From: Thermoproteota archaeon
GTDB lineage: Archaea; Thermoproteota; EX4484-205; JAAOZO01
Direction: 5' to 3'
NCBI GenBank assembly: GCA_041479945.1
Contig: JBGOYZ010000003.1
Coordinates: 1-56,094 of the forward strand
DNA: 56,094 nucleotides
The translations under genes were made by a program, and so were the position numbers. Shown here piece after piece: positions 13,108 through 56,094 of this stretch. How positions within the stretch are numbered: the stretch's first letter is position 1; each line of letters begins with the position of its first letter. Under the pieces are notes generated by a model. The model was not told where the DNA came from and did no database searches. It saw only the letters and a list, made by a program, of their open reading frames with translations.

Positions 13108-13665
13108 ATGCTCAAGGCAGAGTCCATTCTCCTCGAGGAGATCATCCAGAGAGGAATGAAGCGTTTGGGAGTGGATCAACGGTTGCAGCAAACGAGAGTG
13201 GTTCCAAGAGAGGACTTCAAGTATTCGTCCTTGCTTGGAGTGGAAATGAAGCTCGAGAATTCAGTGGAAACCGAGGTTCCGCTCTACGTGGCCGAGCAGC
13301 TGTTCGAGGACGGGATGGCAGATCCGGCAGACAAGGCTCTGGACAGCAAAGTCCTGACCATGATAGCTTGGGAAGAAAGACACAAGACGAGCCAGATATC
13401 GAAAGTCCCAGATTCCTTCTATCAACAGCTCGCAATGTTGATTTCGTCCGACAATGTGGCAGAGAAGACGAAGAGGGTGCTGGAGGCCTCAGCTATCGAA
13501 GTGATGGAAGCCAGATTGAAGAAGATACTGACGTACTCGTTGGTACCTTCGCTTCCGCGAGACGTGGTGGCAAACCTCACGCCCGAGGAATCCTATGTGC
13601 TGGAACTGCTGAGGCTTATCACATCCTCTTGGAGAAAGGAGGTGCTAGGACTTGGAAGAGAATAG
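13108..13665 (+). CDS. GINS family DNA replication complex subunit (assignment partly by synteny with mcm)
   Basis: 185 aa, largely helical. It ends 14 nt inside the mcm ORF. gins-mcm adjacency is known in archaea. There is no strong motif, so this is medium-low confidence. Confidence 0.5.
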   Translation: MLKAESILLEEIIQRGMKRLGVDQRLQQTRVVPREDFKYSSLLGVEMKLENSVETEVPLYVAEQLFEDGMADPADKALDSKVLTMIAWEERHKTSQISKVPDSFYQQLAMLISSDNVAEKTKRVLEASAIEVMEARLKKILTYSLVPSLPRDVVANLTPEESYVLELLRLITSSWRKEVLGLGRE

Positions 13666-16600
13666 GGACAAGATTGGTGAGGACTTCGCATCCTTCATCA
13701 GAGGCTTCAGAGGCGAAGAGGGACAACTCACCTACCTAGACCAGCTGAGGGATCTCCCGATCAGGGGAGGTCATTCCCTTGTTGTGGATTTCCAGCACTT
13801 GGTTCAGTACGAAGGGGCTCTGGCGAGTGAGCTCGAGCAGAACCCACGCGAGATGTTCAAGCTGTTCTCCGAGTCCGGCCTCCTAATGCTGACCGAGCTG
13901 GACATGGAATTCGCCAGAAAGGTCCAGAGGTTCAACGTTAGGGTATCCAACTATCAGAGGAAGGTATCGATCAGGAGCCTCAACTCATCATACATTGGCA
14001 AAATGGTGTCAATCACGGGCGTCGTAGTGAGGAGTTCAGAAGTCATGACTCAGCTCAAGACTGGTGCTTTCCGCTGCATGAGTTGTCAGACAGTGACCCC
14101 AGCCGATCAGGTCGGGTCTTTGTACACTACGCCGCGGGCCTGCCCGGTCTGCAACCGATCGGGACTAGGCACTTTCGAGCTGGAGCCCTCCCTATCGACA
14201 TTCGAAGATTTCCAGTCTATCTCACTTCAGGAAAGACCGGAGGACTTGCCAGCAGGCCATATGCCACAGACCTTGGACTTGGCGTTGACGGATGATCTCG
14301 TGAGCTCTGCCAGACCCGGGGACAGGGTAGTCGTGACCGGCATGGTGAACGTGAAACAAAGGGCAGCTGGCTTCGGAAGGTCGAAATCCCGGGTGTTCGA
14401 ACTCTCCTTGGACACGAACCACATAGCCGTGGAGACCGGGGAGCAACTGGAGGCGGAACTCGACGAGGAGTCTATCAGGTCCTTCAGGGCCGATGCCTCC
14501 CAACCGTGGCATTACAAGAAGTTGATTTCATCCATCGCTCCCTCGATTCACGGAATGGAGAACGTCAAGGAGGCGGTGCTCCTTCAGTTGGCGGGGGGGA
14601 ATCCGAAGGAGTTCAGAGATGGAATCAAGGTCAGGGGTGATGTGAATGTTTTGCTGGTTGGTGATCCGGGGTGCTATTCGGGCGACACTAGGTTAGTGCT
14701 GGGAGATGGCTCGATGCCCACGTTCAGGGAACTCGCGGGGATGCTCGGGGTGGAGGCCCCAGGGATCTATCCGGTATCACTCAAGGTCAAGAACAGAACG
14801 GAAGAGCAGGCCACGGCACTGCACATCTACGAGGGTCAGCCAGTCATCGAGATCACTCTCGCCAGCGGACGAAGTATTAGAGCCACTCCCAACAACCCGT
14901 TCTTCACAAGCAAGGGATGGAGACGTGCCGACCAACTCAAAGTTGGAACGAGCATCCGCATGCGAAGACGGATTCACTCTGACATCAAGGATTATCACCC
15001 GACTGCTTGGAAGCTGGTTTCGCGTGACCATTCACGCAATCACGTCGTCTCTGTGCCTGAGGTTGTGGATGAGCGGCTCGCCGCTCTGACAGGTATTCTG
15101 ACCGCAGAAGGTTACGTTGACGGGCCATACAGCATCGCTCTGGCCGTGAACCAACACGAGAAGCAGCTGGCAGCATCAACAGCGCAGACCATCAAGGATC
15201 TGTTCGGCTACGAGCCGAGTGAATCCGTACTGAAAAGAAACGGCAAGAACGGGCGCACTCTAGATCTCATTAGACTGAGAGTCGCCAATCCGCACATCGT
15301 CAAGTGGCTCAACCCCGTGGTCAAAGAGAAGAGGGTTCCCAGCAGCATATTCATGTCTCCCGACAGCGTCGTGGCGAGCTACGTCAGGTGGCTGTTTGAG
15401 GGCGACGGAAACGTCAGAAGCCAGGCCAAGATGCGCGACCGCTACGTGGCCCTTTCTTCCAAGAGCATAGAGTTGCTTCGGGACGTTCAACTTCTCCTGT
15501 TGCGATTCGGAGTTGAGAGCCACATCTATGCCAAGTCGAACAAGAAAGAGTGCTTTGTGCTGCGAATAAGAGACGCGAGGAGCCTGAGGCTCTTCGCACG
15601 CTACATAGGTTTCGTATCGGAAAGAAAGAGAGGTCAGCTGAATGATCTACTGCAAGGCTATTCCAATGGCCGGAGACTTCCTGAGCGATCTGTTATGGAT
15701 CACATCCTGAAGATCGAGAGGAGAGCACCTGAAACTGTCTATGACTTGGAGGTGCCCAAGACGAACTCGCTGATAGTGAACGGGATCATAGGGCACAACA
15801 CGGCCAAGTCGCAACTCCTGAAGTACATTCAGAAGATAGCCCCTCGTGGTCTGTACACTTCAGGTAGGGGCGCAACAGCAGCCGGCTTGACGGCTGCAGC
15901 GATCCGCGACGAGACCGGCGCATTCTCATTGGAGGCGGGCGCGTTGGTGCTCGCGGACAAGGGGCTCGCAGCCATTGATGAGTTCGAGAAGATGCGAGAA
16001 GAGGACAGAGTTGCCATACATGAGGCCATGGAGCAGCAGACCTGTTCTATAGCCAAGGGAGGAATAGTGGCGACTCTGAACGCGAGGACTTCGATCTTGG
16101 CCGCTGCGAACCCACAGTTCGGAAGATACGACCTCAACAGGAACTTCGCGGAGAACGTCAACCTTTCGCCCGTCATATTGTCTAGGTTCGACCTGTACTT
16201 CGTCCTGCGGGACGTGCCCGACGAGACAAGGGACGCCCTGTTGACTGCGCACATAATCGCACAGCACCGTAAGATGGAACGAGCGGCGGAGGCAACGTAC
16301 GACACCATGTATCTGAAAAGATACGTAGCGTACGCGAAGGTGTCCGCGCCAAAGCTCACTGATGAGGCAGCTCAAGCCATATCCAGGTTCTTCCTGGACC
16401 TCAGGAAGTCTGGGGGCGAGTCGTCGATCCACATCACTCCAAGGCAACTTGAATCTCTGATACGAGAGAGCGAAGCCAGGGCCAAGTTGATGCTCAGAGA
16501 CCTCGTGACCAAAGAGGATGTCGAAGTAGTGATCGCGCTTTTCAGATCCTCGCTTTCTCAAGCGGGCCTTGATGTTGAAACAGGGAAAACGGACATAGAC

Positions 16601-16828
16601 ATCCTGATGACAGGGAAGGCCAGGTCTTCATGGGAGAAGCACAACGTCATAGTCAAGATAGCAGAGGACCTTGAGAAGGAGTTCGGTTCGGCCAACATAG
16701 AGGAGGTACTCAAGAGAGCGGAGGGAAAGGGAGTTGATAGGGCCGACGGCAGGCGCATAATAAACGACCTGCTGAGGAACGGATACTTCTACACCCCTGA
16801 TGACGTGTCGTTGAAGAAGACGCGGTGA
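13652..16828 (+). CDS. mcm: Minichromosome maintenance (MCM) replicative helicase, intein-containing precursor
   Basis: 1058 aa. It has an N-terminal Zn motif (CMSCQ...CPVCN). Walker A is split as LLVGDPG|...|TAKSQLL. Walker B is IDEFEKM and the arginine finger is SRFDL. The extein total is 682 aa. GGAGGTG lies 7 nt upstream of the TTG start. Confidence 0.95.
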   Translation: MEENRDKIGEDFASFIRGFRGEEGQLTYLDQLRDLPIRGGHSLVVDFQHLVQYEGALASELEQNPREMFKLFSESGLLMLTELDMEFARKVQRFNVRVSNYQRKVSIRSLNSSYIGKMVSITGVVVRSSEVMTQLKTGAFRCMSCQTVTPADQVGSLYTTPRACPVCNRSGLGTFELEPSLSTFEDFQSISLQERPEDLPAGHMPQTLDLALTDDLVSSARPGDRVVVTGMVNVKQRAAGFGRSKSRVFELSLDTNHIAVETGEQLEAELDEESIRSFRADASQPWHYKKLISSIAPSIHGMENVKEAVLLQLAGGNPKEFRDGIKVRGDVNVLLVGDPGCYSGDTRLVLGDGSMPTFRELAGMLGVEAPGIYPVSLKVKNRTEEQATALHIYEGQPVIEITLASGRSIRATPNNPFFTSKGWRRADQLKVGTSIRMRRRIHSDIKDYHPTAWKLVSRDHSRNHVVSVPEVVDERLAALTGILTAEGYVDGPYSIALAVNQHEKQLAASTAQTIKDLFGYEPSESVLKRNGKNGRTLDLIRLRVANPHIVKWLNPVVKEKRVPSSIFMSPDSVVASYVRWLFEGDGNVRSQAKMRDRYVALSSKSIELLRDVQLLLLRFGVESHIYAKSNKKECFVLRIRDARSLRLFARYIGFVSERKRGQLNDLLQGYSNGRRLPERSVMDHILKIERRAPETVYDLEVPKTNSLIVNGIIGHNTAKSQLLKYIQKIAPRGLYTSGRGATAAGLTAAAIRDETGAFSLEAGALVLADKGLAAIDEFEKMREEDRVAIHEAMEQQTCSIAKGGIVATLNARTSILAAANPQFGRYDLNRNFAENVNLSPVILSRFDLYFVLRDVPDETRDALLTAHIIAQHRKMERAAEATYDTMYLKRYVAYAKVSAPKLTDEAAQAISRFFLDLRKSGGESSIHITPRQLESLIRESEARAKLMLRDLVTKEDVEVVIALFRSSLSQAGLDVETGKTDIDILMTGKARSSWEKHNVIVKIAEDLEKEFGSANIEEVLKRAEGKGVDRADGRRIINDLLRNGYFYTPDDVSLKKTR
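14672..15799 (+). mobile_element. Intein with LAGLIDADG homing-endonuclease domain inside the MCM Walker A loop
   Basis: 376 codons. It starts with Cys (CYSGDTRLVLGDGS) and ends GIIGHN, followed by Thr+1 (TAKSQLL). Two LAGLIDADG-type blocks are present (LTGILTAEGYVDG and VRWLFEGDGNV). Removing it restores GDPGTAKSQLL. Confidence 0.9.
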
Positions 16829-19135: not shown

Positions 19136-19921
19136 TTGAGCGAATTTGACGCGTTAGGCAAGTTGATAGGGGCGCCAGCCAAGGACTACTTTGGCAGGGA
19201 GATAGGGAAGGTCATCTGCTGTTCGCACGATGGCACTGGCGACATCAAGAGGGTTATCGTATCGAAGTCTGACGGCAACATCGAGGAGTACGACAGGAAG
19301 GACTTGGAGGTCAGCTCATCTGAAGTGGTTGTGAGGGACATGCTCATCTTTTCGGCGAGGTCACTGCGAAAGGAGATTGAGGTCAACTTCAGAAGAGTGC
19401 AAGCACTTGAGGAACTCAAGAAGAACAGTAAGATGCACCAGAGAGTGTACGACGAACTGAAGGCCGAATTCGAGAAGGAATTGGCCTCCCTCAGCGAGGA
19501 GAAGAAAACGTTGGCCGACTTGGCGGATTCAAGGAGAGATGACGTGGCAAAGAGGCTCATGGCGTTGGAGAAGGTCAGGGCTACTGTAGAGGTGCAGGCA
19601 ATGTCCGGTGAAATAGACGAGAACATCTACAGGCTAGCCTTGAGCGAGATAAAATCGGCCATAGACAGGTCAACAAAGGAACTGGACGACCTAGAAAGGG
19701 AACTGAGTTTCCTGGATGTAGACTTCGAGCCGAAGCAGCAGACCGAACTCTACTTGGAGCCGACTTCCTACAAGCCAGTTCAGGGCAACTCTATTCCACA
19801 GGTTCAAGAAAACCCTGTTCCGCAGGAGCAGAGTTCTGGCACAATTCCAGGGTTCTCCTCCGAGACACCGATGGGCCTAGCTGAGGATGTGTCAGGTCCA
19901 CTGCACGTCAGGCGAGTCTAG
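19136..19921 (+). CDS. cdvA: CdvA-like cell-division protein (PRC-barrel-like N-domain, coiled coil, Pro/Gln-rich tail)
   Basis: 261 aa. The N-terminus LIGAPAKDYFGREIGKVI...DGTGDIKRVIV resembles the CdvA N-terminal barrel. A long heptad-rich segment follows, then a low-complexity tail. TTG start. Confidence 0.5.
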   Translation: MSEFDALGKLIGAPAKDYFGREIGKVICCSHDGTGDIKRVIVSKSDGNIEEYDRKDLEVSSSEVVVRDMLIFSARSLRKEIEVNFRRVQALEELKKNSKMHQRVYDELKAEFEKELASLSEEKKTLADLADSRRDDVAKRLMALEKVRATVEVQAMSGEIDENIYRLALSEIKSAIDRSTKELDDLERELSFLDVDFEPKQQTELYLEPTSYKPVQGNSIPQVQENPVPQEQSSGTIPGFSSETPMGLAEDVSGPLHVRRV

Positions 19922-20973: not shown

Positions 20974-22380
20974 CTACTGAATCCACCTCTTCCTCCCAAG
21001 GGTGAATTCGTCTATCTCTCTGTGTCCCTCAACCGTGACAGTCCTTGGGGAAAGCGCTCCTTTGCTCAGAACTCTTGCTTTTCTGAACTTCTCTACGACA
21101 TCATCTGACAAGCCTGCGCTGAACTTGTCCGAGCTGATGTAGCTGCGAAGCATGTCCTCGACCTCAGTCACGCCCCTTTTGACCACAGCCATCCATCTGC
21201 CGTTCTTGATAAACGGTCCCGACACAATGCTTGGGTTCAACCGTTGCTTCGCCAAGAACGCCTCTGAGTTGCTGTAATCGAACGCGCTGGGCCCATTGCG
21301 GAGGATAGACGCAGGCAATACATCGTCTTCAAGAGCGAAGAAGATCAAGACCTCCTTCGATTCATCCGTCCAGTTGCCGGATCTGATCACATTGAAGCCA
21401 GTCCGAGACAGTTCCGTTTCGATCTTTCTCCTGATCCTGTGAACTTGCCCCCAAAGGACATCAGGCGGAGCGTCCCAAGGTGAGACCCGGACGCATATCA
21501 CGTCGAGACCAGACCCCGACACTGATTTGGACTTGAGCCCCGTTCTTGATTGAGAGAAGAAAGACTCCGAAGGTCGGGCAACAAAGGCCCTTGAAGCCCA
21601 GACGAGATCAGCCAAGTGATCTACCGAGACGGACGAAGCCACATTTCTTTCCCTGTCGACGGGGTCTATGACAACAAAGTCGGATCTGAATGCGCTCGCA
21701 ATCTGTCTTGGCTCTTGGTCCGCGGTCAGGCCTTTCAAATCTACTACGAGGGGTAGCTTCAGCTCGGCGAGTTTGTCAAGTAAGTCCATGAACCCGCCGG
21801 ACCATAGTGTCAGTAGCTCGCTCAGAAACCCACTGAATCCTTCGACCCTTATCTCGGCTCCGTAGACGCCGATACCCTTGAGAAATGCCTTGAAGATCCT
21901 GGCCTGATCTTTCGTCGAAGGGTTGAAGTTTTCGTTCACGAACTGCGTGTGGTATATCGTCCTGTCCGTCGCGGACAGCCAGTTTGGTGGTGTGGCCTTG
22001 TAGCATGGTACAAAGTCCACGTCAACGCTCTTGAACCTGACCGTCGCGTAAGGGTGCTCTGCATACCGGAGCGTGACTCTTCTCTCTCCGAATGCTCTTC
22101 TTGCCTCGCCTATGACTATTTCGCCCATCCGTTGCTTGTCGTAGCTCGGCGGGAACAGAATGAACACATCAGCGTCTACGTCCGACCTGATCCAAGTATC
22201 CTTCTGCAGCGATCCCTGAAGGGTGACTTCAAGCGATGGGTCGACTTTAGACAAGGCCCGCTTCATCACATCGATGGCTTCACTCACGATGCCCATGATT
22301 CGCTCTCTTTCCTCTGGAGCAGGCTTGATCTTGAGCAACACTTTCCTCAGGATCTCATCATGAGTTGTCAAAGAGGGCAC
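20974..22380 (-). CDS. cca: CCA-adding enzyme (class I archaeal tRNA nucleotidyltransferase)
   Basis: 468 aa. The N-terminal head domain has GS...KDTW..SDVDADVFILFP (the polymerase-beta-type catalytic carboxylates). Size and layout are typical of archaeal Cca. Confidence 0.85.
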   Translation of the reverse strand: MPSLTTHDEILRKVLLKIKPAPEERERIMGIVSEAIDVMKRALSKVDPSLEVTLQGSLQKDTWIRSDVDADVFILFPPSYDKQRMGEIVIGEARRAFGERRVTLRYAEHPYATVRFKSVDVDFVPCYKATPPNWLSATDRTIYHTQFVNENFNPSTKDQARIFKAFLKGIGVYGAEIRVEGFSGFLSELLTLWSGGFMDLLDKLAELKLPLVVDLKGLTADQEPRQIASAFRSDFVVIDPVDRERNVASSVSVDHLADLVWASRAFVARPSESFFSQSRTGLKSKSVSGSGLDVICVRVSPWDAPPDVLWGQVHRIRRKIETELSRTGFNVIRSGNWTDESKEVLIFFALEDDVLPASILRNGPSAFDYSNSEAFLAKQRLNPSIVSGPFIKNGRWMAVVKRGVTEVEDMLRSYISSDKFSAGLSDDVVEKFRKARVLSKGALSPRTVTVEGHREIDEFTLGRKRWIQ

Positions 22381-22387
22381 ACCTGAC

Positions 22388-22951
22388 CTAGCCGGAGGAC
22401 TCGCAGAGCGTTTCGTACACCGGGCCTCTCGGGGTGAGCGTGCTTCTCTTCAGCCTGACAGGGCTGGTCAGCGATTCTCCGATGTCAGCATCCACCAGCG
22501 ACTCAAGCTTCGGGGTCAGGTTCTCTTTCCCGAAGAGCGACCTCGCCCTTGCCACTGTCAGATGAGGCTTGAACGATTCACGTTGATCTACTTCCACCCC
22601 TGATTCGATACCCATTCTCAGGGCGGCGCTTGCGTACCTCTCCAGATCCTCCTTGCCCTTCGTAACTCCCACCCATACCACCCTCGCCTTTCTCGGTCCC
22701 GGGAACGCTCCGACGCCCCGCAGACAGATGGTCAGAGGAGGCAACTTGGTGGAGGCTAGCCGACGGCACAGGAAGCTTCTCTGATTGTCGTCGATCTCGC
22801 CGAAGAAAGCCATTGTGAAATGCAGATTCCCAGGCTCAACGAACTTGAGGTCTGCTCCCGCAGTCATCAGAATATTCTGAATCCCCTTGATTTTGGCCCT
22901 TACCGTCTCATCCGTCAGGTCCAAGGACATGAACGCTCTCAAGTGGCTCAT
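22388..22951 (-). CDS. thpR: RNA 2',3'-cyclic phosphodiesterase (2H family, ThpR/LigT)
   Basis: 187 aa with two H-x-T-x motifs (HFTMAF and HLTVAR). Confidence 0.85.
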   Translation of the reverse strand: MSHLRAFMSLDLTDETVRAKIKGIQNILMTAGADLKFVEPGNLHFTMAFFGEIDDNQRSFLCRRLASTKLPPLTICLRGVGAFPGPRKARVVWVGVTKGKEDLERYASAALRMGIESGVEVDQRESFKPHLTVARARSLFGKENLTPKLESLVDADIGESLTSPVRLKRSTLTPRGPVYETLCESSG

Positions 22952-23037
22952 TATCGGTTCGGTTCCGCTGCTTTAAATCGTTTCTTTGTCGCCGACAAGC
23001 TTATCTCGGAAGAGAAAAGCCCGAAGTTCACGAACCA

Positions 23038-23634
23038 TTGTCAAGGCCTCCGGAGAAAACAAACGAGGAGACAACTTCTCTAGTTCTGATCGCTGGCCTG
23101 CCGGGTGCAGGCAAGACGACCGTTGCGAAGATCCTGGCTGAGAAGGGACTGCCAGTGCTCTCGATGGGCGATGTCATGAGAGAAGAGGCAAGACGACGAG
23201 GCAAGCCAGATGACATTGACTCGATGAGGGGGTTCATGGTCCAGCTGAGGAAGGAACGCGGTGAAACGGTCGTGGCTGAGCTCGTCATCGGGAAACTGAG
23301 AGGAATCAGCTGGCCCCTGGTAGTCATCGACGGTCTCAGGTCCGAGGAAGAGCTTGAGGCTTTCAGACGAGTTGCGGGTAGAGTACTGCTGATACTGGTG
23401 GCCTCGGATCTCCAGCATAGGTTTCAGAGGCTTTCGAAGAGGGCGCGGCCCGATGATCCGAAAAAGGTGGAGGATCTGAGGAGGAGAGATGACACCGAAC
23501 TGACGGTAGGTCTGGAGAAGCTGATGTCCAGAGAAGGCGTCAGGATCACAAACGACGGGGATATAGAGTCTCTCAAGAGAAAGACGGTCGAACTGTTCAG
23601 AAAGCAGGGCTCAATCTATGACGTATTCGGCTAG
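23038..23634 (+). CDS. P-loop nucleotide/nucleoside kinase-like protein (UPF0200 / dephospho-CoA-kinase-like fold)
   Basis: 198 aa. Walker A is GLPGAGKTT. The architecture is short and adenylate-kinase-like, with a lid-like RRRDD segment. The substrate cannot be inferred. TTG start; the 3' end overlaps rnz convergently. Confidence 0.5.
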   Translation: MSRPPEKTNEETTSLVLIAGLPGAGKTTVAKILAEKGLPVLSMGDVMREEARRRGKPDDIDSMRGFMVQLRKERGETVVAELVIGKLRGISWPLVVIDGLRSEEELEAFRRVAGRVLLILVASDLQHRFQRLSKRARPDDPKKVEDLRRRDDTELTVGLEKLMSREGVRITNDGDIESLKRKTVELFRKQGSIYDVFG

Positions 23635-24531
23635 GTCCTGCGCGACTTCCACATTCTTGAAGGTCTTCCTAGCTTCCTCAAGCAAGGGTTCCGCATTCTG
23701 GTATCTCGCGCTGATGTGAGTCAGTATCAACTGCCTTACTCCGGCCATGGAGGCCACTTTGGCCGCATCGGCCGCCAGAGCGTGCATCACCTTCTTTGCC
23801 GACTCAGCCCTTGATGACTCGAAGGTCGCCTCGTGGATCAAGATGTCAACCCCCTTTGAGAACCCGACCACTTCCTCGGAGAAGGCAGTGTCGCCCGTGT
23901 AGACGATCTTGAACCCCGGGCGGGGTGGTCCCACGACGTCTTCGGGTTTTACGGTCTTGCCCCTGACCGTGACCGCCTTCCCCTTGGTGAGAACTGTTCT
24001 CAATGGCCCAGGAGGGACTCCCAGTCTCTTGGCCACCTCCTCGTCGAACTTTCCGGGCCTGTCCTTCTCCTCAAACTTGAACGCCCAAGATTCCACCGAG
24101 TGTCGTGATTTGGTGGCGAGGATCCGGTAGTCCTTTCCCTCTACAACCAACCCAGGCCTGACTATCTCGACTGAACTCACTGGGAAGTCAACGTTGTCCT
24201 CATATATCGTGGGCAGCAGACAGCTCAGGAAGGCGTTCAGTCCGGTTGGTCCATATACTGACAGCGGATCTTCCCTGCCGAGCAGATCCATCGTCATCAG
24301 CAGGCCGGGCAGGCCGAGGACATGATCTCCGTGGAGATGTGTGATGAACACCTTAGCCACCTTCATCGGGCTTATTCCCGCTTTGATCATGTTGTTCTGA
24401 GTCCCCTCACCGACATCAAGTAGCATCACCTCTCCCTTCCACTGCAGGGCGACTGAGGAGAGTCCCCTATCGCCAGTGGGAACGCCGGCGGATGTGCCAA
24501 GGAACACCAGTTTACCTCTCATGCCAATCAT
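23611..24531 (-). CDS. rnz: Ribonuclease Z (tRNA 3' endonuclease)
   Basis: 306 aa. It has the metallo-beta-lactamase motif HLHGDH and the N-terminus LVFLGTSAGVPT..R. An ATGA overlap joins it to the upstream methyltransferase gene. Confidence 0.85.
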   Translation of the reverse strand: MIGMRGKLVFLGTSAGVPTGDRGLSSVALQWKGEVMLLDVGEGTQNNMIKAGISPMKVAKVFITHLHGDHVLGLPGLLMTMDLLGREDPLSVYGPTGLNAFLSCLLPTIYEDNVDFPVSSVEIVRPGLVVEGKDYRILATKSRHSVESWAFKFEEKDRPGKFDEEVAKRLGVPPGPLRTVLTKGKAVTVRGKTVKPEDVVGPPRPGFKIVYTGDTAFSEEVVGFSKGVDILIHEATFESSRAESAKKVMHALAADAAKVASMAGVRQLILTHISARYQNAEPLLEEARKTFKNVEVAQDLAEYVID

Positions 24532-25556
24532 CTCCGCGCGACTGCGAACACCCTAGTGAGGGAGTCGTGCACCCTTATTTCATCCTTGCTGACAAGTTTG
24601 AGCCCTGCGTTCCTGACCATGTCAGCCACCGACTCTCCAGAGGGATAGACCAACGATAAGCACCCGTTTGTTGGCAATGCGTCCCTCGAGAACTCCACCA
24701 GATCTTGATATGTCTCACTCACGAGCCGGTCCTTGACCATTGGCGACAGTATGCCGTACGGCGGGTCAGTAATGATCGCATCTGCTTTCATGAAGGGGCA
24801 CTTCTGCGCGTCGCCCACCGCAAGATGGAAATCGCTGTAGCCGAACTTGTTCAGGTTGGCCCGAGCACCCTTGATCATCGAAATCTTGAAGTCCAGGCCT
24901 AGACTCGTTGCGCCCAGTTCGCAGGCTTCGATCAGCATGCCACCCGCTCCACAGAACGGGTCTAGCACTATGTCGCCTCGCCTGACCCTCGCTAGGTTGA
25001 CCAGCACTCTGCAGAACTCGGGTTGCAGTGTCGAATGGTGCGAGAAGGGCTTCACCTCGTTCCTGTGGGCCGGAAGCACCTTGCGGGCAGTGGGAACGAT
25101 TCTCACGCCCAAGACAGCCCCATCAGGCGCGACGAGCATCACGAAGGTTCTTTCAGGATTGACCAGTCTGACCTTGGCCTGCATCGCCCCAGCCAGCAAT
25201 CCGCCGATCTCGCTCACGAGGGGGTTCACCGACTCAGCTGGCACAGCTGCACCTACTCTCTTCACGACCAGCTTGAATGACTGGGTCTTGGGGGTAGGCA
25301 TACCTCTCCGTATCTCCTTCGAGATATCCCCTGCGCCGCCCCTTGAGAAGGTCAGTTCCTCACACATGAACTGAGACAACGAAAGCCTAGCCGCCGCGCG
25401 CGAGGCTGAGCCACTATCTGCGCTGAACCTAAGGACACCCTGAATTCCTGGTCTCATCTCGAAGGCGGCTCCTTCGGCTTCCATCGCACCCTCCAACTCA
25501 CTGACTGGCAACCTCCCGTAGCCCTGCGCAAAGGCGACGAAGAGAGATTCCGTCAT
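24528..25556 (-). CDS. THUMP-domain SAM-dependent tRNA methyltransferase (Trm11/TrmG10-like, guanine-N2)
   Basis: 342 aa. It has an N-terminal THUMP-like region, SAM motif I LDPFCGAGGMLIEA and catalytic DPPYG. An ATGA overlap joins it to prs upstream. Confidence 0.7.
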   Translation of the reverse strand: MTESLFVAFAQGYGRLPVSELEGAMEAEGAAFEMRPGIQGVLRFSADSGSASRAAARLSLSQFMCEELTFSRGGAGDISKEIRRGMPTPKTQSFKLVVKRVGAAVPAESVNPLVSEIGGLLAGAMQAKVRLVNPERTFVMLVAPDGAVLGVRIVPTARKVLPAHRNEVKPFSHHSTLQPEFCRVLVNLARVRRGDIVLDPFCGAGGMLIEACELGATSLGLDFKISMIKGARANLNKFGYSDFHLAVGDAQKCPFMKADAIITDPPYGILSPMVKDRLVSETYQDLVEFSRDALPTNGCLSLVYPSGESVADMVRNAGLKLVSKDEIRVHDSLTRVFAVARR

Positions 25557-29231: not shown

Positions 29232-32200
29232 TCACGCCACCGGACAGAAGCTCCAGCCACAGTCCATGCAGACGCCACATCCCCCTTCCATGGATATCCT
29301 AGTGCTTCCACACGAGGGACACTTGTCGTGATTGCCACCTGACAGTGGGACACCGGTGTTTTCGTTGACGGTGGGTTGGCCCATTCTCGTGCCAACTGGC
29401 GTGACGTTTACGGGCTGAGCTGGTGCGGTAATTTCCGGCTCTATGCCAGCCTTCTTCATCAACTCGATAGTCCTGTTCTTGACCATCACGGCATATCCTC
29501 CTTTCTTCGAGGAAGGGGCTACCAAGACTTGCCCTGGCCTCGACCCATCGCGATAGACGGTCACCCCCTTGATTCCAAGCCTGTGTGCGAACAGGTAGGC
29601 CTTGAAGACGTCTGGGACTCCTACCCACGAGGGCATGTTTATCGTCTTGCTCACAGCAGCAGCGATCCACTTCGCGAACGCGGCTTGTGCCCTGAGGTGA
29701 TCCCACCAAGGTATGTCAAGTGCCGTTTGGAACACAGCTTTGAAGTCATCCGGCATGCCGTCGATTCCCTGAAGCGAACCGCCGTTGTCGCTGATGTCCT
29801 TGAGTAGCTTCTCGGAGTAGCTCTCAGCCAGCTTCAGCCTCTTGTCAAACTCTTCGTCTGTGTAGTAGAAGTTGCCGACGGTGACACGCTTTTCGTAGGC
29901 CAACGCATATGCCGGCTCTATGCCCGATGATGTATCTGCGATCATCGATATCGAGCCAGTTGGAGCGATTGTTGTGCACTCTGCGTTCCTGATGCCATCT
30001 TCTCCTATCTTCTTCACGAGGACTTCCCAGTCCATCTTCCATTCCTCCCTGTGATAGTAACCCTCGATCGGGAGTTCCCCGTTCCTATAGGCTGAGCTTG
30101 AGAAGAGAGGGAACGGACCCCTCCGCCCTGAAACCTCGGTTGACTCCCACATGGCCCAGTACGACAGGTACTCGGCTACCTTCTCCATGAACTCAAACCC
30201 AGCTTCGCTGTTGTAGGGAACATCCAAAGCAAAGAGGACATCCGCCAGGCCCATGACTCCAAGGCCGACCTTTCGTGTACGCTTGGTAGCTCTCTCGATT
30301 GCTGGGAACGGGAATCTGTTCACATCGATGACGTTGTCTAGGAACTTGAGTGCCACAAGAATGCTTTCTTTGAAGTGATCCCAATCAAAACTCTTCTTTC
30401 CTTCTTCGTTCTCTTTGATGAAGGCATACAGATTCAGAGACCCGAGATTACATGACTCGTAGGCGTACAAGGGTTCCTCCCCGCAGTTATGAACGACCAA
30501 CCCGTTTGCGACGAAGCTGTGGGTCTCGGGCTCCTTGAGGTCGAAGACGGTTTCGTACCCGACTCGTCTTATCTCCTTCACGCTGGTGACGTATTCCTGT
30601 CTGTTTGAATTCCTCCTCTTGTCATCTATCCACTGCCTGAGCTTGTTCTGCTTCTTCCGGATCAGGAACCCGATCTCCCGCGCAAATGCGTCCCTGCTTT
30701 GCCCATCGATTGACAACTCATGGTAGGCCATGCACTCATACTCCTTCCTGCCCCCGTGACCATCCGGCAGGAAACGGACTTGTTTGCCTCTTCTGTTGAA
30801 GTAGATCCTAGACACTATGCCGAAGTTGAGCAGAAGTAGCTGAACCTGTTCCAGGAGTTGTCTTGAGACGCTTGTCAGGCGCACAGAGCAGCTCTTGTTC
30901 TTGGTGATGTTGATGTGCCCATCAGCGGTGAACAGTCCCTGGAGAAAGCCCCTCTGCAATTCCTTGGAGCCGCGAAACACCAACTCAGGTGCCTGAAGCT
31001 TGTTCCCATCAGGAAACGCCGGCTCCAGCTCGCCATAGAGTCTCTTAGATGTGATGTAGAGGCAGTCCTGTCTTGGATTGTCATTGATCCTTACGGGGCT
31101 GCCCGTCAGTTTGGCCACAGCCTTGGCCATCATGGGAGCGATCTCCTTATCCTCGCCATAGAATCTCAGGTACACCCTTTGGCCGCTGATGTCACCATCC
31201 CCGACAGTCCAGCCGACCGTTCTGCCAGCTTCCAGTGTACCGAACTCACCAAAGCCTCCGACTCCAGACTGTAGATACAAGACATCGTTGTGCGTCAGTT
31301 CGCAGAGAGGTTTCCAGCCATCTTGCGTGCGGAACTTATGGTCTGATGTGGCCTTGATCCGGTATCCATGTCGGGTCTGCACCTCATAGACGAGCTTCGT
31401 ACCACTGCACACGACATCAGCAACATCCTTCAGTTCCGTTCCCGAAGCCTGATACGCTCTGCTCTTGTGTTTCATGCCGTAAGGATAAACCATGACTGGG
31501 GCCGGTCCGACTCTCGCATCAGTGACCGCTCTAATGGACATTTGATGGTCATACAGGTCCGCGATCCTGATCATCCCCCTGTCGGTTGACACCCTGCTGT
31601 TCCCCACGATGCAGGGGTTCGTGCTTGTTATGGGCCCGAGAACACCATTCATGACATTCCTCTTGTTCATGTTGTCGAAGAACACTACTCCAGGGTCGCC
31701 GTTCTTCCATGCCTGTTTTGCGATAGTCTCGAAGAGCCTCGCCGGATCGATTCTCTCTGCCACTTTTCCGTTCCTCGGATTGACTAACGGATAGGGCTCG
31801 TTCTTCGCAAGGGAATCCCAGAAGCCCTCTTTCACCATGACCGAGATGTTGAAGTTCTCGAACCTACCCGGCTCGGACTTGCATAGGATGAAGGACTCTA
31901 TGTCGGGATGATCTATGTCGAGTATTCCCATGTTCGCCCCTCTTCTGCGCCCACCCTGTCGCACGACATCCGTCACCGTGTCGATAATCCGCATGAAGGA
32001 AACGGGGCCACTTGCCACACCGGATGTGGTGAATACGATGTCACCGGTTGGCCTCAACCCAGAGTAGTTCAGACCGATTCCTCCGCCACTCTTGAAGATC
32101 ACAGCGGAGTCCGTGGCCGCTGTCATTATCGATTCTATGTCATCCTCAATGGACAACACAAAGCAGGCAGACAGCTGGCCCAGCAAGGTTCCCGCGTTGA

Positions 32201-32990
32201 ACAGGGTTGGAGAGTTGGGTAGAAACCTCCTCGTTGCCATCATAGAGTAGTATTCGCTGAACTCACGTGCATGGGAGTCGAACTCACCCCTGAGCACGCC
32301 GTCCCAGAACTCAGTCCAGCTCTTCTTCATCTTCCCTTCTTCGTTCAGCTCGTCGTACAGCTCCTTCATGCGTTCAAGGTGGTACTTGTTCCAGGTGAAC
32401 TCATACTCACCGCTGGGTCCCTTGAGCCCCACCTTGCCGTCCCAGTCGACGGCCTTCCACATCTCTGGTTCCCGGGCCTGCTGATCGCCGGCCTTCGAGA
32501 AGATCGTCACGTCATGCAGTATATCAGGGATCACGATCAGGGCGGCAATCCTCTTGAACATCAGCTTCGGTCCTTCGATGAAGTTACCTTCACTGTCCTT
32601 CTGAAGGTACCTGGCGGCCAGAAGTCTGAGTGAATTCACGGAGAAATCTTTGTCCACCTCGTCGAGGGGCTCTTTCTTCAGTGTCCCCTCCTTCTCTTCC
32701 CTTATCTTCTCCCTCTCCTTCCTGTAGATTATGTAGGACCTTGCTACCTCAAACAGATCCTGCTTGACGAGTTCCATCTCGACTATGTCTTGGATTTCCT
32801 CCACGGAGGGGACCTTCCCAGAGGAATGCAGCCCCTCTATCACCTTGAGCACACTCGAGAGAACAGACTTCAGCTTCCTCTCGTCGTACTGCCTCTCGTC
32901 CAGCATGGCCCTCCTTATGGCGCGCTCAATCCTAGAAGGGTCGAAACCTACGACTGTTCCGTCACGTTTGATAACCTTCCTTTCGCTCAT
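29232..32990 (-). CDS. nrdJ: Adenosylcobalamin-dependent ribonucleotide reductase (class II), intein-containing precursor
   Basis: 1252 aa. It has an N-terminal ATP-cone (VIKRDGTVVGFDPSRIERAIRRAM). The catalytic motif is split as STNP|...|CGEEPL. A C-terminal Cys-rich zinc finger is present (CPSCGS...CGVCMDCG). The extein total is 876 aa. Confidence 0.95.
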   Translation of the reverse strand: MSERKVIKRDGTVVGFDPSRIERAIRRAMLDERQYDERKLKSVLSSVLKVIEGLHSSGKVPSVEEIQDIVEMELVKQDLFEVARSYIIYRKEREKIREEKEGTLKKEPLDEVDKDFSVNSLRLLAARYLQKDSEGNFIEGPKLMFKRIAALIVIPDILHDVTIFSKAGDQQAREPEMWKAVDWDGKVGLKGPSGEYEFTWNKYHLERMKELYDELNEEGKMKKSWTEFWDGVLRGEFDSHAREFSEYYSMMATRRFLPNSPTLFNAGTLLGQLSACFVLSIEDDIESIMTAATDSAVIFKSGGGIGLNYSGLRPTGDIVFTTSGVASGPVSFMRIIDTVTDVVRQGGRRRGANMGILDIDHPDIESFILCKSEPGRFENFNISVMVKEGFWDSLAKNEPYPLVNPRNGKVAERIDPARLFETIAKQAWKNGDPGVVFFDNMNKRNVMNGVLGPITSTNPCIVGNSRVSTDRGMIRIADLYDHQMSIRAVTDARVGPAPVMVYPYGMKHKSRAYQASGTELKDVADVVCSGTKLVYEVQTRHGYRIKATSDHKFRTQDGWKPLCELTHNDVLYLQSGVGGFGEFGTLEAGRTVGWTVGDGDISGQRVYLRFYGEDKEIAPMMAKAVAKLTGSPVRINDNPRQDCLYITSKRLYGELEPAFPDGNKLQAPELVFRGSKELQRGFLQGLFTADGHINITKNKSCSVRLTSVSRQLLEQVQLLLLNFGIVSRIYFNRRGKQVRFLPDGHGGRKEYECMAYHELSIDGQSRDAFAREIGFLIRKKQNKLRQWIDDKRRNSNRQEYVTSVKEIRRVGYETVFDLKEPETHSFVANGLVVHNCGEEPLYAYESCNLGSLNLYAFIKENEEGKKSFDWDHFKESILVALKFLDNVIDVNRFPFPAIERATKRTRKVGLGVMGLADVLFALDVPYNSEAGFEFMEKVAEYLSYWAMWESTEVSGRRGPFPLFSSSAYRNGELPIEGYYHREEWKMDWEVLVKKIGEDGIRNAECTTIAPTGSISMIADTSSGIEPAYALAYEKRVTVGNFYYTDEEFDKRLKLAESYSEKLLKDISDNGGSLQGIDGMPDDFKAVFQTALDIPWWDHLRAQAAFAKWIAAAVSKTINMPSWVGVPDVFKAYLFAHRLGIKGVTVYRDGSRPGQVLVAPSSKKGGYAVMVKNRTIELMKKAGIEPEITAPAQPVNVTPVGTRMGQPTVNENTGVPLSGGNHDKCPSCGSTRISMEGGCGVCMDCGWSFCPVA
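30486..31613 (-). mobile_element. Intein with LAGLIDADG homing-endonuclease domain inside the NrdJ NPCGE active-site motif
   Basis: 376 codons (aa 460-835). It starts CIVGNSRV and ends GLVVHN, followed by Cys+1 (CGEEPL). The LAGLIDADG-type blocks are GWTVGDGDIS and LQGLFTADGHI. Removing it restores TNPCGE. Confidence 0.9.
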
Positions 32991-33337: not shown

Positions 33338-33429
33338 GGGGTCGTCGTCTAGAGACGCAGTCGGACAACTTGGTCTAGGATACCAGCCTGGGGCGCTGGA
33401 GACCTCGGGTTCAAATCCCGACGACCCCA
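33338..33429 (+). tRNA. tRNA-Pro (anticodon GGG at 33390-33392) with a 16-nt non-canonical intron in the D-loop
   Basis: Acceptor GGGGUCG/CGACCCC plus A73. Anticodon arm is CCAGC-CUGGGGC-GCUGG and T arm is UCGGG-UUCAAAU-CCCGA. The 92-nt gene is 16 nt too long between positions 8 and 26. No CCA is encoded. See the finding for the BHB fold. Confidence 0.85.
33353..33368 (+). other. Predicted tRNA-Pro intron (between tRNA positions 15 and 16)
   Basis: The 4-bp helix 33347-33350:33363-33366 is flanked by 3-nt bulges AGA and AAC. An inner helix GAC/GUC is also present. Excision leaves a 76-nt cloverleaf. Confidence 0.65.
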
Positions 33430-51821: not shown

Positions 51822-52019
51822 CGCCTCACGATATCTTAATAACTACTGGCAACAGCTCGTCAAGGATGCCTATTTAAGTGTTCCGTACGTTTTTTCTTAT
51901 AAACGTTCCCTCTACCCTTCCGCGATGCCCCAACTGGCGGCTTGACTGTGGGGACCTTCTTCACTCTGCAGAGGTACTGTAGGATAGCCCGGGAGAGATT
52001 CGAACTCTCGTTGACGGGT

Positions 52020-52041
52020 CTCTTCTCTCCTTTGGGGAGAA
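52020..52041 (-). other. Predicted tRNA-Gln intron 3 (22 nt, canonical 37/38 position)
   Basis: It follows CUCUGG (positions 32-37). It has an inner hairpin UCUCC-CCAAA-GGAGA. The BHB is relaxed: the central helix CUCU:GAAG has one C-A mismatch. Confidence 0.7.
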
Positions 52042-52057
52042 CCAGAGCCCGCTATCC

Positions 52058-52072
52058 TTGGCCGGATTTCCT
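52058..52072 (-). other. Predicted tRNA-Gln intron 2 (15 nt, between tRNA positions 21 and 22)
   Basis: BHB: helix GGUC:GGCC is flanked by bulges AAA and AAG, with a small inner hairpin. Confidence 0.6.
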
Positions 52073-52084
52073 TTGACCGCTAGA

Positions 52085-52101
52085 CTCGGCGGCTATGGCC
52101 T
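52085..52101 (-). other. Predicted tRNA-Gln intron 1 (17 nt, between tRNA positions 10 and 11)
   Basis: BHB: helix CGGU:GCCG is flanked by bulges CAA and AGU, with an inner GGC/GCC hairpin. Confidence 0.65.
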
Positions 52102-52379
52102 TGACCGGGCTATTCCGGGCCATCCATGTGATCGTTGTCGTAGGGGTATTTCTCCCTTGTGGGCGCAACCGAAACCCCCCGATTGGTCAGCCTGCGACTC
52201 TTCACGCTCGGCTTCCGGACACTCGTGGTTCGGTTGTCGATCGTCTGCTACTGGGAGTCGTGCCATCAGAATGCTCAACAGGAGCTGAGAACACTATTCC
52301 AAGACTTATCTTCCCGAGAAGCCCTGACGCAACCATGCGGAGACATAGGTCACCGCGAGAGGGCGATCTGAATGGTGTA

Positions 52380-53885
52380 ATGGTTCACCCTGATGAGATG
52401 AGGATCGCTGAGTTGAACGCGGTCCAGCTGGGGGTGTCGAGCCTCGCGCTGATGGAAAAGGCCGGCTCCGCTGTTGCTGATGCCGTAGCCAGATTGACTA
52501 GGTCAGGCAGAGTTCTCGTTGTCTGTGGGCCGGGGAAGAATGGAGGTGATGGCCTCGTGGTGGCAAGAAGACTTCTCGAACGTGGCTATCCGGTGGTTGT
52601 GTTGCTCGCTGTACCTCCTGGATCCCTAGCGGCGGATGAAACCAAGCTGAACTGGAACAGGTACTCGCAACTGGAAGGCACTCACATCGCCACGGACCAA
52701 GAAGGATGGCTGGAGAGGGCAAGACTGGAGATGCGCAGGAGCAAGACGATAGTTGACGCTCTGTTCGGAACCGGGATAAGGGGTGAGATCTCGGGAGACG
52801 CGGCTGCCGTCATTGACCTCATTAGCTCATCGAGGAAGCCGATAGTCTCCGTCGATACTCCCTCTGGGCTGGATCCGTTCACTGGCACTGCCTCTTCGAA
52901 GGTAGTGCATGCACACGCCACCGTGACTTTCCATGCCATGAAGAAAGGGCTGGCGTCTAGGCCCGACCTCACTGGCAAGGTTTCTGTGGTTGACATCGGC
53001 ATGCCGAGGTCCGCCTCACTTTTCGTCAATCGGGAGGACGTAGTCTCGGCGCTGCCCGCAAGAGATCGGTTCACACACAAGGGTGATTATGGAGTCGTCT
53101 TGGTTGTTGGAGGCAGTGAGCTCTATTCAGGTGCTCCTGCCTTGGCTGCCCTCGCAGCGCTCAGAACAGGGGCGGGATTGTCACTGGTAGCTTCGCCCGA
53201 ATCCGTCGCTTCGTCAATCAGATCGATGTCGCCGGATCTGATCGTGAGGAGCCTGCCCGGCGAAAGGCTAAGTTCGGGTCATCTGAACTTGCTCAAGGCC
53301 GAACTGGACAGAGCGACGGTCGTTGCCGTCGGGCCAGGAATGGGCAGAGCTGAGGATTCCCTTAGGGGTATTCTAGAGATCGTTGAGCGAGTCCTTGCGG
53401 AAGGAAAAAGGCTTGTCGTTGATGCTGACGCTCTGGGCATCAGCGGGCAGCTTGTTGCGACCGCGTCTCCGAAGTCGGTGATTTTGACGCCCCACGCGGG
53501 AGAGTTCAAGAAACTCACGGGAAAGGAGGTAGGGCCTCAGTGGCCTGAGAGAGTGAATGAAGTCAAAGAGTTTGCCAAGTCACGCAACTGCACCGTGATC
53601 CTAAAGGGATACCACACGGTGATCTCCGATGGGTCCGTGGTCAAGGTGAATAGGGGAGGTAATCCTGGGATGTCAAAGGGGGGGACTGGAGACATCTTGA
53701 CTGGCGTTGTATCAGGTCTGCTGGCTCAAGGATCAGGCGCCTTGCAGGCTGCTTGTGCTGCCCCTCACATCTGCGGCGAGGCCGCTGACAGGCTCTTCAC
53801 ATCAAAGGGCTTTCACTACACTGCCTCAGATCTCCTGACAGCCCTTCCGGAAGTACTGAAGGAATATGACAGATATTCAGATTGA
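52380..53885 (+). CDS. nnr: Bifunctional NAD(P)H-hydrate repair enzyme (epimerase and ADP-dependent dehydratase)
   Basis: It has a YjeF_N domain (LMEKAGSAVA, GPGKNGGDG) and a carbohydrate-kinase-like C domain (GPGMG, GGTGDILTG). The ORF-track N-terminus (52095-52379) overlaps tRNA-Gln and looks spurious. The start is ATG 52380 or 52335. Confidence 0.85.
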   Translation: MVHPDEMRIAELNAVQLGVSSLALMEKAGSAVADAVARLTRSGRVLVVCGPGKNGGDGLVVARRLLERGYPVVVLLAVPPGSLAADETKLNWNRYSQLEGTHIATDQEGWLERARLEMRRSKTIVDALFGTGIRGEISGDAAAVIDLISSSRKPIVSVDTPSGLDPFTGTASSKVVHAHATVTFHAMKKGLASRPDLTGKVSVVDIGMPRSASLFVNREDVVSALPARDRFTHKGDYGVVLVVGGSELYSGAPALAALAALRTGAGLSLVASPESVASSIRSMSPDLIVRSLPGERLSSGHLNLLKAELDRATVVAVGPGMGRAEDSLRGILEIVERVLAEGKRLVVDADALGISGQLVATASPKSVILTPHAGEFKKLTGKEVGPQWPERVNEVKEFAKSRNCTVILKGYHTVISDGSVVKVNRGGNPGMSKGGTGDILTGVVSGLLAQGSGALQAACAAPHICGEAADRLFTSKGFHYTASDLLTALPEVLKEYDRYSD

Positions 53886-55011: not shown

Positions 55012-55290
55012 ATTGGTCCCAGAGGTCTGTGCCTTGAGCCACATGAGGAAACCCTTGACCTCGTCTGGAAGTGCTGCTGGCTTCAATCTGTACGTTTGGA
55101 CTCCCCCCAGCGCCTCCTGCTCAACCACGCCGCATTTCATCAGGATCTCAAGCCGGCCCTTGGTAGTGCGCGGGTAGGCACCTATCTTCCTAGAGAGTGA
55201 ATACAGCGTCAGGGGATTTCCGTGGTCCAGCTCCATCAGGATCTTTAGGTTGTTCTCATCTCCAATGACCTCCAGCCAGTCTGTCCTCAA
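55003..55290 (-). CDS. Small winged-helix (ArsR-like) protein coupled to an Orc1/Cdc6-like gene
   Basis: 95 aa. Its TTG start overlaps the upstream TGA stop (TTGA). The core LKILMELDHGNPLTLYSLSRKIGAYPRTTKGRLEILMKCGVVEQE has the same architecture as the 10377-10652 product. Confidence 0.5.
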   Translation of the reverse strand: MRTDWLEVIGDENNLKILMELDHGNPLTLYSLSRKIGAYPRTTKGRLEILMKCGVVEQEALGGVQTYRLKPAALPDEVKGFLMWLKAQTSGTNSL

Positions 55291-56094
55291 CTCTTGCTCG
55301 CCAAGTAGTTCTTGATCACACTGAGCGGAGGAGAGACGAGTGCCACCTTTGTTTCGCCACCCTCGACCAACAGATCCACAATCCCCTCAAACTCAAGTCT
55401 TCTAACGAGCGCAACCTCTTGCTCATTGTCAGCGCCGATCTCCGAGAGGGAGAAGTATGCCATTTCACCGGCGGACGAGACATCTGCAATCCTCTTGAGA
55501 ATCCTCTTGATCTCAGGAGGCCATCCGGCGAGCGCATCCGGCCTCAGGATCGGTTCTATTCTGGTCTGCGCGACTCTCACGCTCTCAGGGGTGACGCGCC
55601 GAGATCCCTCCCAATCAGCTTCTCTTCCGGACGCGAGCAGTAGCTCAAGGCCGTATCTTGCCGACCCATACCCGAACTTGGTCGCCATCCTGCTCGCCAG
55701 TACTATTTCCTCTGCACCGATTGCCCCGGTAGCGAAGGCTTCCTCGCTCCTGCCCGAGAGGATCTGTCGCATCTGCTCATACCCGTACGGGAGATATGGC
55801 AGCCTCGTCCTCCAAACATAATTCCGTATCCAAGCCTCTAGGAAACTGGATGAGAAATCCTCTATTCCCACCAGTATGAAGAACACTCGGCCCTTGCCTT
55901 GCTCGTGGTACTTCAGCATGTCGTACACCAGACTGGTCTTGCCCTTTGTGATCCTAGTGAATGAGTCAAAATCGTCGAGGGCAATCAACGCACGCTGTCC
56001 TCTGTGTTCCAAGTAGTCTTGGACCGCGGTCACCAGTTCGCCAGCGCCATACCCGCGGGTTGACATCCCAGGTATTATCTTCATTGAAATCATC
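55287..56094 (-). CDS. Orc1/Cdc6-family AAA+ paralogue, C-terminal part (N-terminus with Walker A lies beyond the right edge)
   Basis: It has Walker B ALDDFD, the sensor region FILVG and the GSARYGLELL motif (compare GDARYAIEVL in orc1), plus a C-terminal winged-helix-like domain. No Walker A precedes Walker B within the window, so the gene is truncated by the edge. Confidence 0.6.
   Translation of the reverse strand, partial: MISMKIIPGMSTRGYGAGELVTAVQDYLEHRGQRALIALDDFDSFTRITKGKTSLVYDMLKYHEQGKGRVFFILVGIEDFSSSFLEAWIRNYVWRTRLPYLPYGYEQMRQILSGRSEEAFATGAIGAEEIVLASRMATKFGYGSARYGLELLLASGREADWEGSRRVTPESVRVAQTRIEPILRPDALAGWPPEIKRILKRIADVSSAGEMAYFSLSEIGADNEQEVALVRRLEFEGIVDLLVEGGETKVALVSPPLSVIKNYLASKS

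Follow-up and report, generated by a model that had tools for sequence, protein, structure and literature searches.

Multiple non-canonical introns in transfer RNA (tRNA) genes have been documented in Crenarchaeota and Thaumarchaeota, and tRNAscan-SE 2.0 includes a Thaumarchaeota-specific model of the bulge-helix-bulge (BHB) motif (PMC8450103). In its census of 217 archaeal genomes, 16 of the 16 three-intron genes belonged to Thermoproteales and none to the 11 Thaumarchaeota genomes (Supplementary Table S7, PMC8450103). Pyrobaculum tRNA-Pro(UGG) has introns at 25/26, 37/38, and 56/57 (Sugahara 2007/2008, cited in PMC4090602), and both a multi-intron tRNA-Gln(CUG) and a heterotetrameric endonuclease are reported for Caldiarchaeum subterraneum (PMC3082918). 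The (alpha-beta)2 form of the splicing endonuclease EndA is widespread across the TACK (Thaumarchaeota, Aigarchaeota, Crenarchaeota, Korarchaeota) lineages (PMC5829648). Here we describe a tRNA-Gln(CUG) gene with three predicted BHB introns on the minus strand of a 56,094-nt stretch of Thermoproteota archaeon DNA (contig JBGOYZ010000003.1; hereafter the window), in which the 5'-most intron is accompanied by a leader element complementary to the acceptor 3' strand. Like the multi-intron tRNAs of Thermoproteales, this gene has BHB introns (up to three per gene) at canonical as well as non-canonical sites, some of them in relaxed motifs, and is of a type missed by simple gene finders. It differs from them in its lineage, in its intron positions (10/11 and 21/22), in a layout that is stable over many genomes within one isoacceptor rather than resulting from recent intron spread, and in the leader element. 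With the non-canonical introns of Thaumarchaeota and Aigarchaeota it shares the broad clade and the isoacceptor, and a heterotetrameric EndA would be expected here as well.

The gene (51985..52111, minus strand, A1 = 52111) is 127 nt long and consists of four exons and three introns of 17, 15, and 22 nt. An earlier interpretation of this DNA from its letters alone, the sequence-only reading, had given the same strand, numbering, and insertions, and the helices and bulges it described are all present. In what follows, n counts precursor nucleotides from A1, H is the 4-bp central helix of a BHB motif, B a bulge, h' the inner helix, and h the outer helix. Exon 1 (52102..52111, n1-10, tRNA positions 1-10) provides the acceptor 5' strand, U8, C9, and A10, and is identical to that of the intron-free ortholog L013. 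Intron 1 (52085..52101, n11-27, position 10/11) has a relaxed HBh' motif with H = C5G6G7U8:G22C23C24G25, bulges CA|A and AG|U, and an inner hairpin GGC/GCC. Exon 2 (52073..52084, n28-39), delimited from the spliced product and by comparison with intron-free orthologs, carries nucleotides 11-13 of the D-stem 5' strand and the D-loop. Intron 2 (52058..52072, n40-54) lies between the last D-loop nucleotide and G22 (21/22), likewise in an HBh' motif, with G34G35U36C37:G49G50C51C52 as H and with AA|A and AA|G as the two bulges. Exon 3 (52042..52057, n55-70) includes the D-stem 3' strand, A26, the anticodon stem 5' strand, and C32-G37 with the anticodon CUG. It is followed at the canonical 37/38 position by intron 3 (52020..52041, n71-92), a complete hBHBh' motif in which the anticodon stem serves as outer helix, H has one C.A mismatch, and the inner hairpin is UCUCC/GGAGA. 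Exon 4 (51985..52019, n93-127) holds A38, the anticodon stem 3' strand, a 4-nt variable region, the T arm, the acceptor 3' strand, and A73; CCA is not encoded.

Excision of n11-27, n40-54, and n71-92 gives exactly the 73-nt product proposed by the sequence-only reading, AGCCCGG UC AUCU AGCGGUCAA GGAU A GCGGG CUCUGGA CCCGU CAAC GAGAG UUCGAAU CUCUC CCGGGCU A, which ARAGORN calls as tRNA-Gln(ctg). Removal of the introns thus restores a canonical cloverleaf with the conserved nucleotides U8, A14, and G18G19 and the T-loop UUCGAAU. The product is slightly less regular than had been claimed: the D-stem, said to be all Watson-Crick, has a U13.G22 wobble, and the anticodon stem, said to be perfect, has a G27.U43 wobble. 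The unspliced locus gave no match with ARAGORN run with intron options or with the Rfam tRNA model (gathering threshold or E<=10). The silence of both tools is uninformative as to function.

We then scored nine registers per intron for a 4-bp H, 3-nt bulges cut after the second nucleotide, h', and h. At all three introns the BHB geometry was present at shift 0 only, the register with the cut after the second bulge nucleotide that the sequence-only reading had adopted (H 4/4 and h' 3 for intron 1; H 4/4 and h' 2 for intron 2; H 3/4, h' 5, and h 5 for intron 3). The outer helix is absent from introns 1 and 2, as in the relaxed HBh' form. The junction of intron 2 is ambiguous over four positions because of a CAA repeat, and only the BHB register fixes it. 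Shuffled introns reached the observed values in 8e-4 (intron 1), 3e-4 (intron 2), and 5e-5 (intron 3) of the trials. As 31 BHB-like motifs are found in the precursor at a lax threshold, geometry alone is weak evidence; it counts here because it coincides with the junctions required by the cloverleaf and is joined by comparative evidence.

For this comparison, the 25-mer at the 3' end of the gene was traced to over 119 genome contigs, nearly all of them belonging to metagenome-assembled genomes (MAGs) of Bathyarchaeia, and a scan for the 10/11 insertion gave another 119 contigs, mostly of Nitrososphaeria and Bathyarchaeia. In the first set, 101 of the tRNA-Gln genes lack introns, measure 73 nt, and have CUG or UUG as anticodon. 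One of these, L013 (53.5 bits, E = 4e-11 with the Rfam tRNA model RF00005), agrees with the predicted spliced product over its first 26 nt (AGCCCGGTCATCTAGCGGTCAAGGAT) and its last 27 nt. When positions 1-500 of L013 were submitted, Rfam reported nothing in gathering mode and 53.5 bits in evalue mode, a filter artefact; when queries are short, the default filters of Rfam can drop genuine tRNAs. The adjacent TFB gene led to L237, the closest public relative, which is labelled uncultured Nitrososphaerota archaeon and has a TFB 97% identical to that of the window. Its ortholog of the tRNA gene is likewise 127 nt long and lies 163 nt upstream of TFB, in the same arrangement. The two tRNA genes have 10 differences, nine in introns (mostly in hairpin loops) and one in an exon (Fisher p=0.002), where the U13.G22 pair is improved to C13-G22; the flanking DNA is only ~70% identical. 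A syntenic tRNA gene upstream of TFB was found only in L237 and the more distant L243, and the L238 ortholog lies elsewhere in the locus.

Tallied over 150 distinct tRNA-Gln genes, the three sites recur with intact geometry. Site 1 (10/11) holds an intron in 96 genes, with H 4/4 in 95 and h' of at least 3 in 87, and these comprise 86 different intron sequences of 14-33 nt. Site 2 (21/22) is occupied in 38 genes (H 4/4 in 38/38; h' of at least 2 in 35) and site 3 (37/38) in 43, where H is 3/4 in 33 and 4/4 in 9 and the outer helix is present in 43/43. At site 1 the bulges follow the consensus (G/C)(G/A)A and A(A/G/C)U, and at site 2 AAA and A(A/U/G)G. All three sites are occupied in 28 distinct genes, every one with anticodon CUG and most in MAGs labelled Nitrososphaeraceae or Nitrosocosmicus, which share both the sites and the bulge consensus with the window gene. 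Spliced alignment indicates the three-insertion layout also in two Bathyarchaeia genes (L138 and L146). Exons are conserved among the orthologs, and introns vary or are absent. ARAGORN made zero calls among the three-intron orthologs that we tested, and it miscalled a single-intron tRNA-Gln(CUG) ortholog (L080, 777-868) as tRNA-Pro(tgg). Four tRNA-Gln genes of 151-157 nt from Bathyarchaeia MAGs (L185, L205, L174, and L194) show four apparent insertions with approximate junctions, at 10/11, in the D-arm/anticodon-stem region, in the 37/38 region, and in the T arm near 53/54; if true, these genes would surpass the highest intron number published for a tRNA gene, which is three. From the restored cloverleaf, the splice geometry, and the orthologs, we are highly confident that the three-intron model and its junctions are real, and only a little less so that the locus is a functional tRNA-Gln(CUG) gene with three protein-spliced BHB introns.

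The sequence-only reading had noted that triple-intron tRNAs are known mainly from Thermoproteales-type archaea, and an affiliation of the host with these does not agree with the relatives found. The nearest TFB relatives (97-60% amino acid identity) are MAGs labelled Nitrososphaerota, Thaumarchaeota, Brockarchaeota, or Thermoproteota, with no Thermoproteales among them, and the tRNA orthologs come from Nitrososphaeria and Bathyarchaeia. The window also encodes CdvA, and Thermoproteales are not known to have the Cdv system. The host lies outside Thermoproteales, and by the insertion sites and BHB consensus shared with Nitrososphaeria orthologs its introns are of the Thaumarchaeota/Aigarchaeota type. 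Three-intron tRNA genes are therefore not confined to Thermoproteales: tRNA-Gln(CUG) retains the same three introns over many Nitrososphaeria-labelled genomes and their relatives, and the 28 distinct three-site genes stand against the zero recorded for 11 Thaumarchaeota genomes in the census (PMC8450103). A literature search found no paper that brings "three introns" together with tRNA and Nitrososphaera. Features of this kind are already known, and a stable three-intron gene outside Thermoproteales appears to be under-reported.

Intron 1 raises a puzzle of its own. Its GCCG pairs with C5G6G7U8 and removes three nucleotides from the 7-bp acceptor stem. Since H uses C5-G7 plus U8, this helix would compete with a G+C-rich stem, and a weak 4-bp BHB helix has to form though its exon strand is locked in a strong one. 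Three nucleotides upstream of +1, at positions -10 to -4 (52115..52121, minus strand), the leader contains GGCCCGG, a near-copy of the acceptor 5' strand that is complementary to the acceptor 3' strand CCGGGCU. The complementarity is extendable to GGAUGGCCCGG (52115-52125), with a partner (CCGGGCUAUCC, 51982..51992, minus strand) that spans the acceptor 3' strand, A73, and the trailer UCC. This element was absent from the sequence-only reading. An A/T-rich box ~40 nt upstream, common to the window gene, L237, and L238, would put the start of transcription near -11. In many Bathyarchaeia and Nitrososphaeria tRNA-Gln genes (e.g., L016, L024, and L135), CCA directly follows the gene, at the place taken by UCC in the window gene and in L237. 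With an encoded CCA, (G)GU often precedes the acceptor copy in the leader, and the helix can extend over A73 and CCA.

Leaders were scored for complementarity to CCGGGCU over seven positions with G.U allowed. The site is 7/7 in 65 of the 98 genes with a 10/11 intron and 6/7 in the remaining 33; among the 104 genes without this intron, 2 reach 7/7 and most stay at the chance level of 5/7. Among genes with identical mature sequences, the site is present only alongside the intron. Outside the site the leader shows no conservation, and spacers range from 0 to 26 nt, most of them measuring 1-5 nt. At the internal positions 2-6 of the site all substitutions are C-to-U, which keep a U.G pair, and pair-breaking changes occur at the two helix ends only. 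We consider the association between leader element and intron to be well supported. The copy was also considered as a true exon 1 and ruled out: position 8 would then be A or some other non-U nucleotide, the D-stem would be mismatched, the spacer length varies (0-26 nt), and no BHB flanks the copy.

A survey of other intron-containing tRNAs in the collected loci (58 candidates) led to an independent family in which the acceptor stem is engaged even further. In the tRNA-Ala(UGC) of L142, an intron at 9/10 has H = C4-G7 and h = G1-G3, so that the entire acceptor 5' strand is engaged in the BHB. Scans of genomes and metagenomes gave seven distinct tRNA-Ala genes of this type, and in 6/7 a leader site that pairs with their own 3' strand CCGGUCC lies 6-10 nt upstream of +1, in the variants GGGCCG(U/C/A), GGAUCGG, and GGACUG. 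In the latter two, the changes G3-to-A, C4-to-U, and C5-to-U keep pairs with U70, G69, and G68 while identity to the 5' strand is lost. The independent observations in this family are few, as 5/6 of the positives have homologous leaders.

In folding calculations, the leader is predicted to free the 5' strand for the BHB. With leader and trailer, the minimum-energy fold of the window precursor pairs GGAUGGCCCGG with CCGGGCUAUCC, and the real 5' strand stays free. When the leader is left off, the fold has the normal acceptor stem and lacks the intron-1 helix. Partition-function folding over 97-98 genes gave a mean probability of the intron-1 helix of 0.48 with 40 nt of native leader, 0.20 with the leader site complemented, and 0.05 with no leader, and the mean probability of the true acceptor stem was 0.22, 0.44, and 0.91, respectively. 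Across 12 combinations of transcript ends, these probabilities ranged over 0.43-0.56 (intron-1 helix) and 0.07-0.39 (acceptor stem) for the native leader and over 0.15-0.21 and 0.49-0.66 for the complemented site. For the window gene the effect is 0.32 vs 0.00, provided that the leader begins 4 nt or more ahead of the site or that no trailer is present.

The mechanism that we propose on these grounds is that the leader GGCCCGG would stand in for the 5' strand by pairing with the acceptor 3' strand, and the real 5' strand, freed in this way, could form the BHB of intron 1. After splicing, the real acceptor stem would have to re-form and RNase P to remove the leader, a step that the folding calculations do not explain. 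The splicing of all three introns, independently of this proposal, can be supposed from what is known of archaeal tRNA splicing: an (alpha-beta)2-type endonuclease of broad specificity would cut each 3-nt bulge behind its second nucleotide, and the exons would be joined by an RtcB-type ligase. We give the stand-in role of the leader about even odds; the mechanism is plausible and, as yet, unproven. In its general form, the proposal is that introns borrowing acceptor-stem nucleotides come with a dedicated leader mimic that licenses recognition by the endonuclease and enforces splicing before maturation of the 5' end; it would be a general cis-acting RNA switch for introns of this kind in Nitrososphaeria, Bathyarchaeia, and their relatives, and for this we estimate a probability of roughly 0.45. 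If true, gene finders could use the leader as a signature, and it would exemplify how a cis-acting RNA element can set the order of processing steps.

A likeness exists to the split and permuted tRNA genes (Nanoarchaeum equitans, Cyanidioschyzon merolae, and Thermofilum pendens), in which sequence outside the mature tRNA also pairs within the precursor and enables splicing. In those systems the flanks pair together, form the BHB itself, and are removed by EndA, whereas the leader of the window gene pairs with the mature acceptor 3' strand, and its effect would be indirect, through release of the 5' strand. The leader:3' helix runs as an unbroken duplex with no bulges, and no BHB is present at the mature ends (H 0/4). 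This rules out the helix as a BHB that excises the tRNA ends, and the flank-to-flank BHB of split and permuted genes is lacking. In the literature searched, we did not find the leader element described; reviews and tool papers give flank pairing only for split and permuted tRNAs.

Several points weigh against the gene model or the leader proposal. For the gene model, splicing and the exact junctions are predictions, and neither EndA nor RtcB ligase was found among the open reading frames (ORFs) of the window, which covers 56 kb only. For the leader, the genes compared are phylogenetically related, so that the counts and p-values make them look more independent than they are. Against a permutation control, helix extension into the trailer showed no excess (1.25 vs 1.15) and was therefore not counted as evidence. 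The predicted effect vanishes in the window gene for a transcript that begins exactly at the site and retains at least 3 nt of trailer, and it is nil in some Nitrososphaeraceae genes (L137). One tRNA-Ala lineage (L257/L258) has the intron and no leader site, so the element is not obligatory. Finally, the leader helix often still outcompetes the true acceptor stem in silico after splicing; a thermodynamic switch-back is thus not supported by nearest-neighbour folding, and the release of the 3' strand is left unexplained.

Conceivably, the leader copy has no processing role at all and is a relic of intron acquisition, such as a duplication at a site of integration or recombination. Integration of mobile elements into archaeal tRNA genes does leave duplicated tRNA fragments (PMC3293823), the majority of leader sites copy AGCCCGG exactly or nearly so, and the tRNA-Ala lineage with an intron and no site would fit a dispensable remnant. 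A relic would not be expected to be kept at 6-7 of 7 positions in 98/98 intron-bearing genes, across very divergent leaders of Nitrososphaeria and Bathyarchaeia with unconserved flanks, nor to accept only pair-preserving internal substitutions. The tRNA-Ala variants GGATCGG and GGACTG, which keep complementarity to the 3' strand and not identity to the 5' strand, speak against it as well, and we regard this origin as unlikely.

No better placed is the possibility that the helix is functional in another way, without promoting the BHB: it could block RNase P or tRNase Z until splicing, protect the 3' end, or serve as a processing stem. The predicted helix with leader and trailer does reach 11 bp and covers A73 and the trailer, and it stays stable after splicing in silico. 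Against this stands the specificity of the element to genes with an acceptor-borrowing intron, as it is absent where the gene is intron-free or has other introns only, together with the lack of a BHB at the mature ends. An ordering role is in any case compatible with the idea of the leader as a decoy and is not opposed to it.

Two further explanations concern the tRNA gene rather than its leader, and both are improbable. In the first, the gene is real and the two cuts at intron 1 each fall one nucleotide earlier (9/10, n26/n27), to give G10 and not A10. G10 is the state in most relatives, and the product of this register begins AGCCCGGTCGTCTAG, which matches many intron-free orthologs (e.g., L035 and L055). 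Even so, the register was ruled out: it retains 1/4 central-helix pairs and no inner helix, in the G10 orthologs the canonical register itself gives G10, and A10, which pairs with U25, is present in the intron-free or single-intron relatives L013 and L080. Least probable of all is a decayed pseudogene, or three chance insertions with coincidental BHB-like folds and no functional tRNA, for which the missing calls on the unspliced locus and the frequency of loose motifs could be cited, against exons that join into a perfect cloverleaf, exons kept in L237 with one stem-improving change against nine intron changes, the same three sites with intact geometry in 28 distinct orthologs, and the finding of no other tRNA-Gln gene in the 56-kb window.

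The window contains one more tRNA gene, a 92-nt tRNA-Pro(GGG) on the plus strand (33338..33429), which the sequence-only reading did not mention. It carries a 16-nt non-canonical intron (33353-33368) at position 15/16 with H 4/4 and h' 3. ARAGORN and Rfam both misplace its start at 33357, where the acceptor stem is mismatched and the score does not exceed 30.2 bits. No copy of the acceptor strand is present in its leader, which is to be expected of a BHB that draws on D-stem and not acceptor nucleotides. The only two tRNA genes of the window are thus both intron-containing, and both are mis-annotated or missed by standard tools. As simple tools miss such genes or misplace their ends, MAG annotation and checks of completeness based on the tRNA complement will undercount tRNAs in these lineages.

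The sequence-only reading had also noted that the ORF of nnr (NAD(P)HX epimerase/dehydratase) extends across the tRNA-Gln gene. The longest ORF (52095-53885, plus strand) is indeed over-extended, and its overlap with the tRNA amounts to just 17 nt (52095-52111) on the opposite strand; the start of nnr is probably near 52380, because the YjeF_N domain begins at residue 118. Elsewhere in the window, a cluster of tRNA-maturation genes (20974-25556, minus strand) consists of a CCA-adding enzyme (20974-22380), a LigT-like 2H phosphoesterase of the 2'-5' RNA ligase family (22388-22951), an RNase Z-like metallo-beta-lactamase (23611-24531), and a Trm11-like UPF0020 methyltransferase (24528-25556), all on the minus strand. 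The ribonucleotide reductase large subunit (29232-32990, minus strand) and MCM (13652-16828, plus strand) each contain an intein with a LAGLIDADG homing-endonuclease domain. CdvA (19136-19921, plus strand) and two Cdc6/Orc1 genes (9247-10380, plus strand; 55287-56093, minus strand) form, together with MCM, the small and large subunits of RFC, and a Hel308-like helicase, a replication and cell-division neighbourhood typical of TACK archaea.

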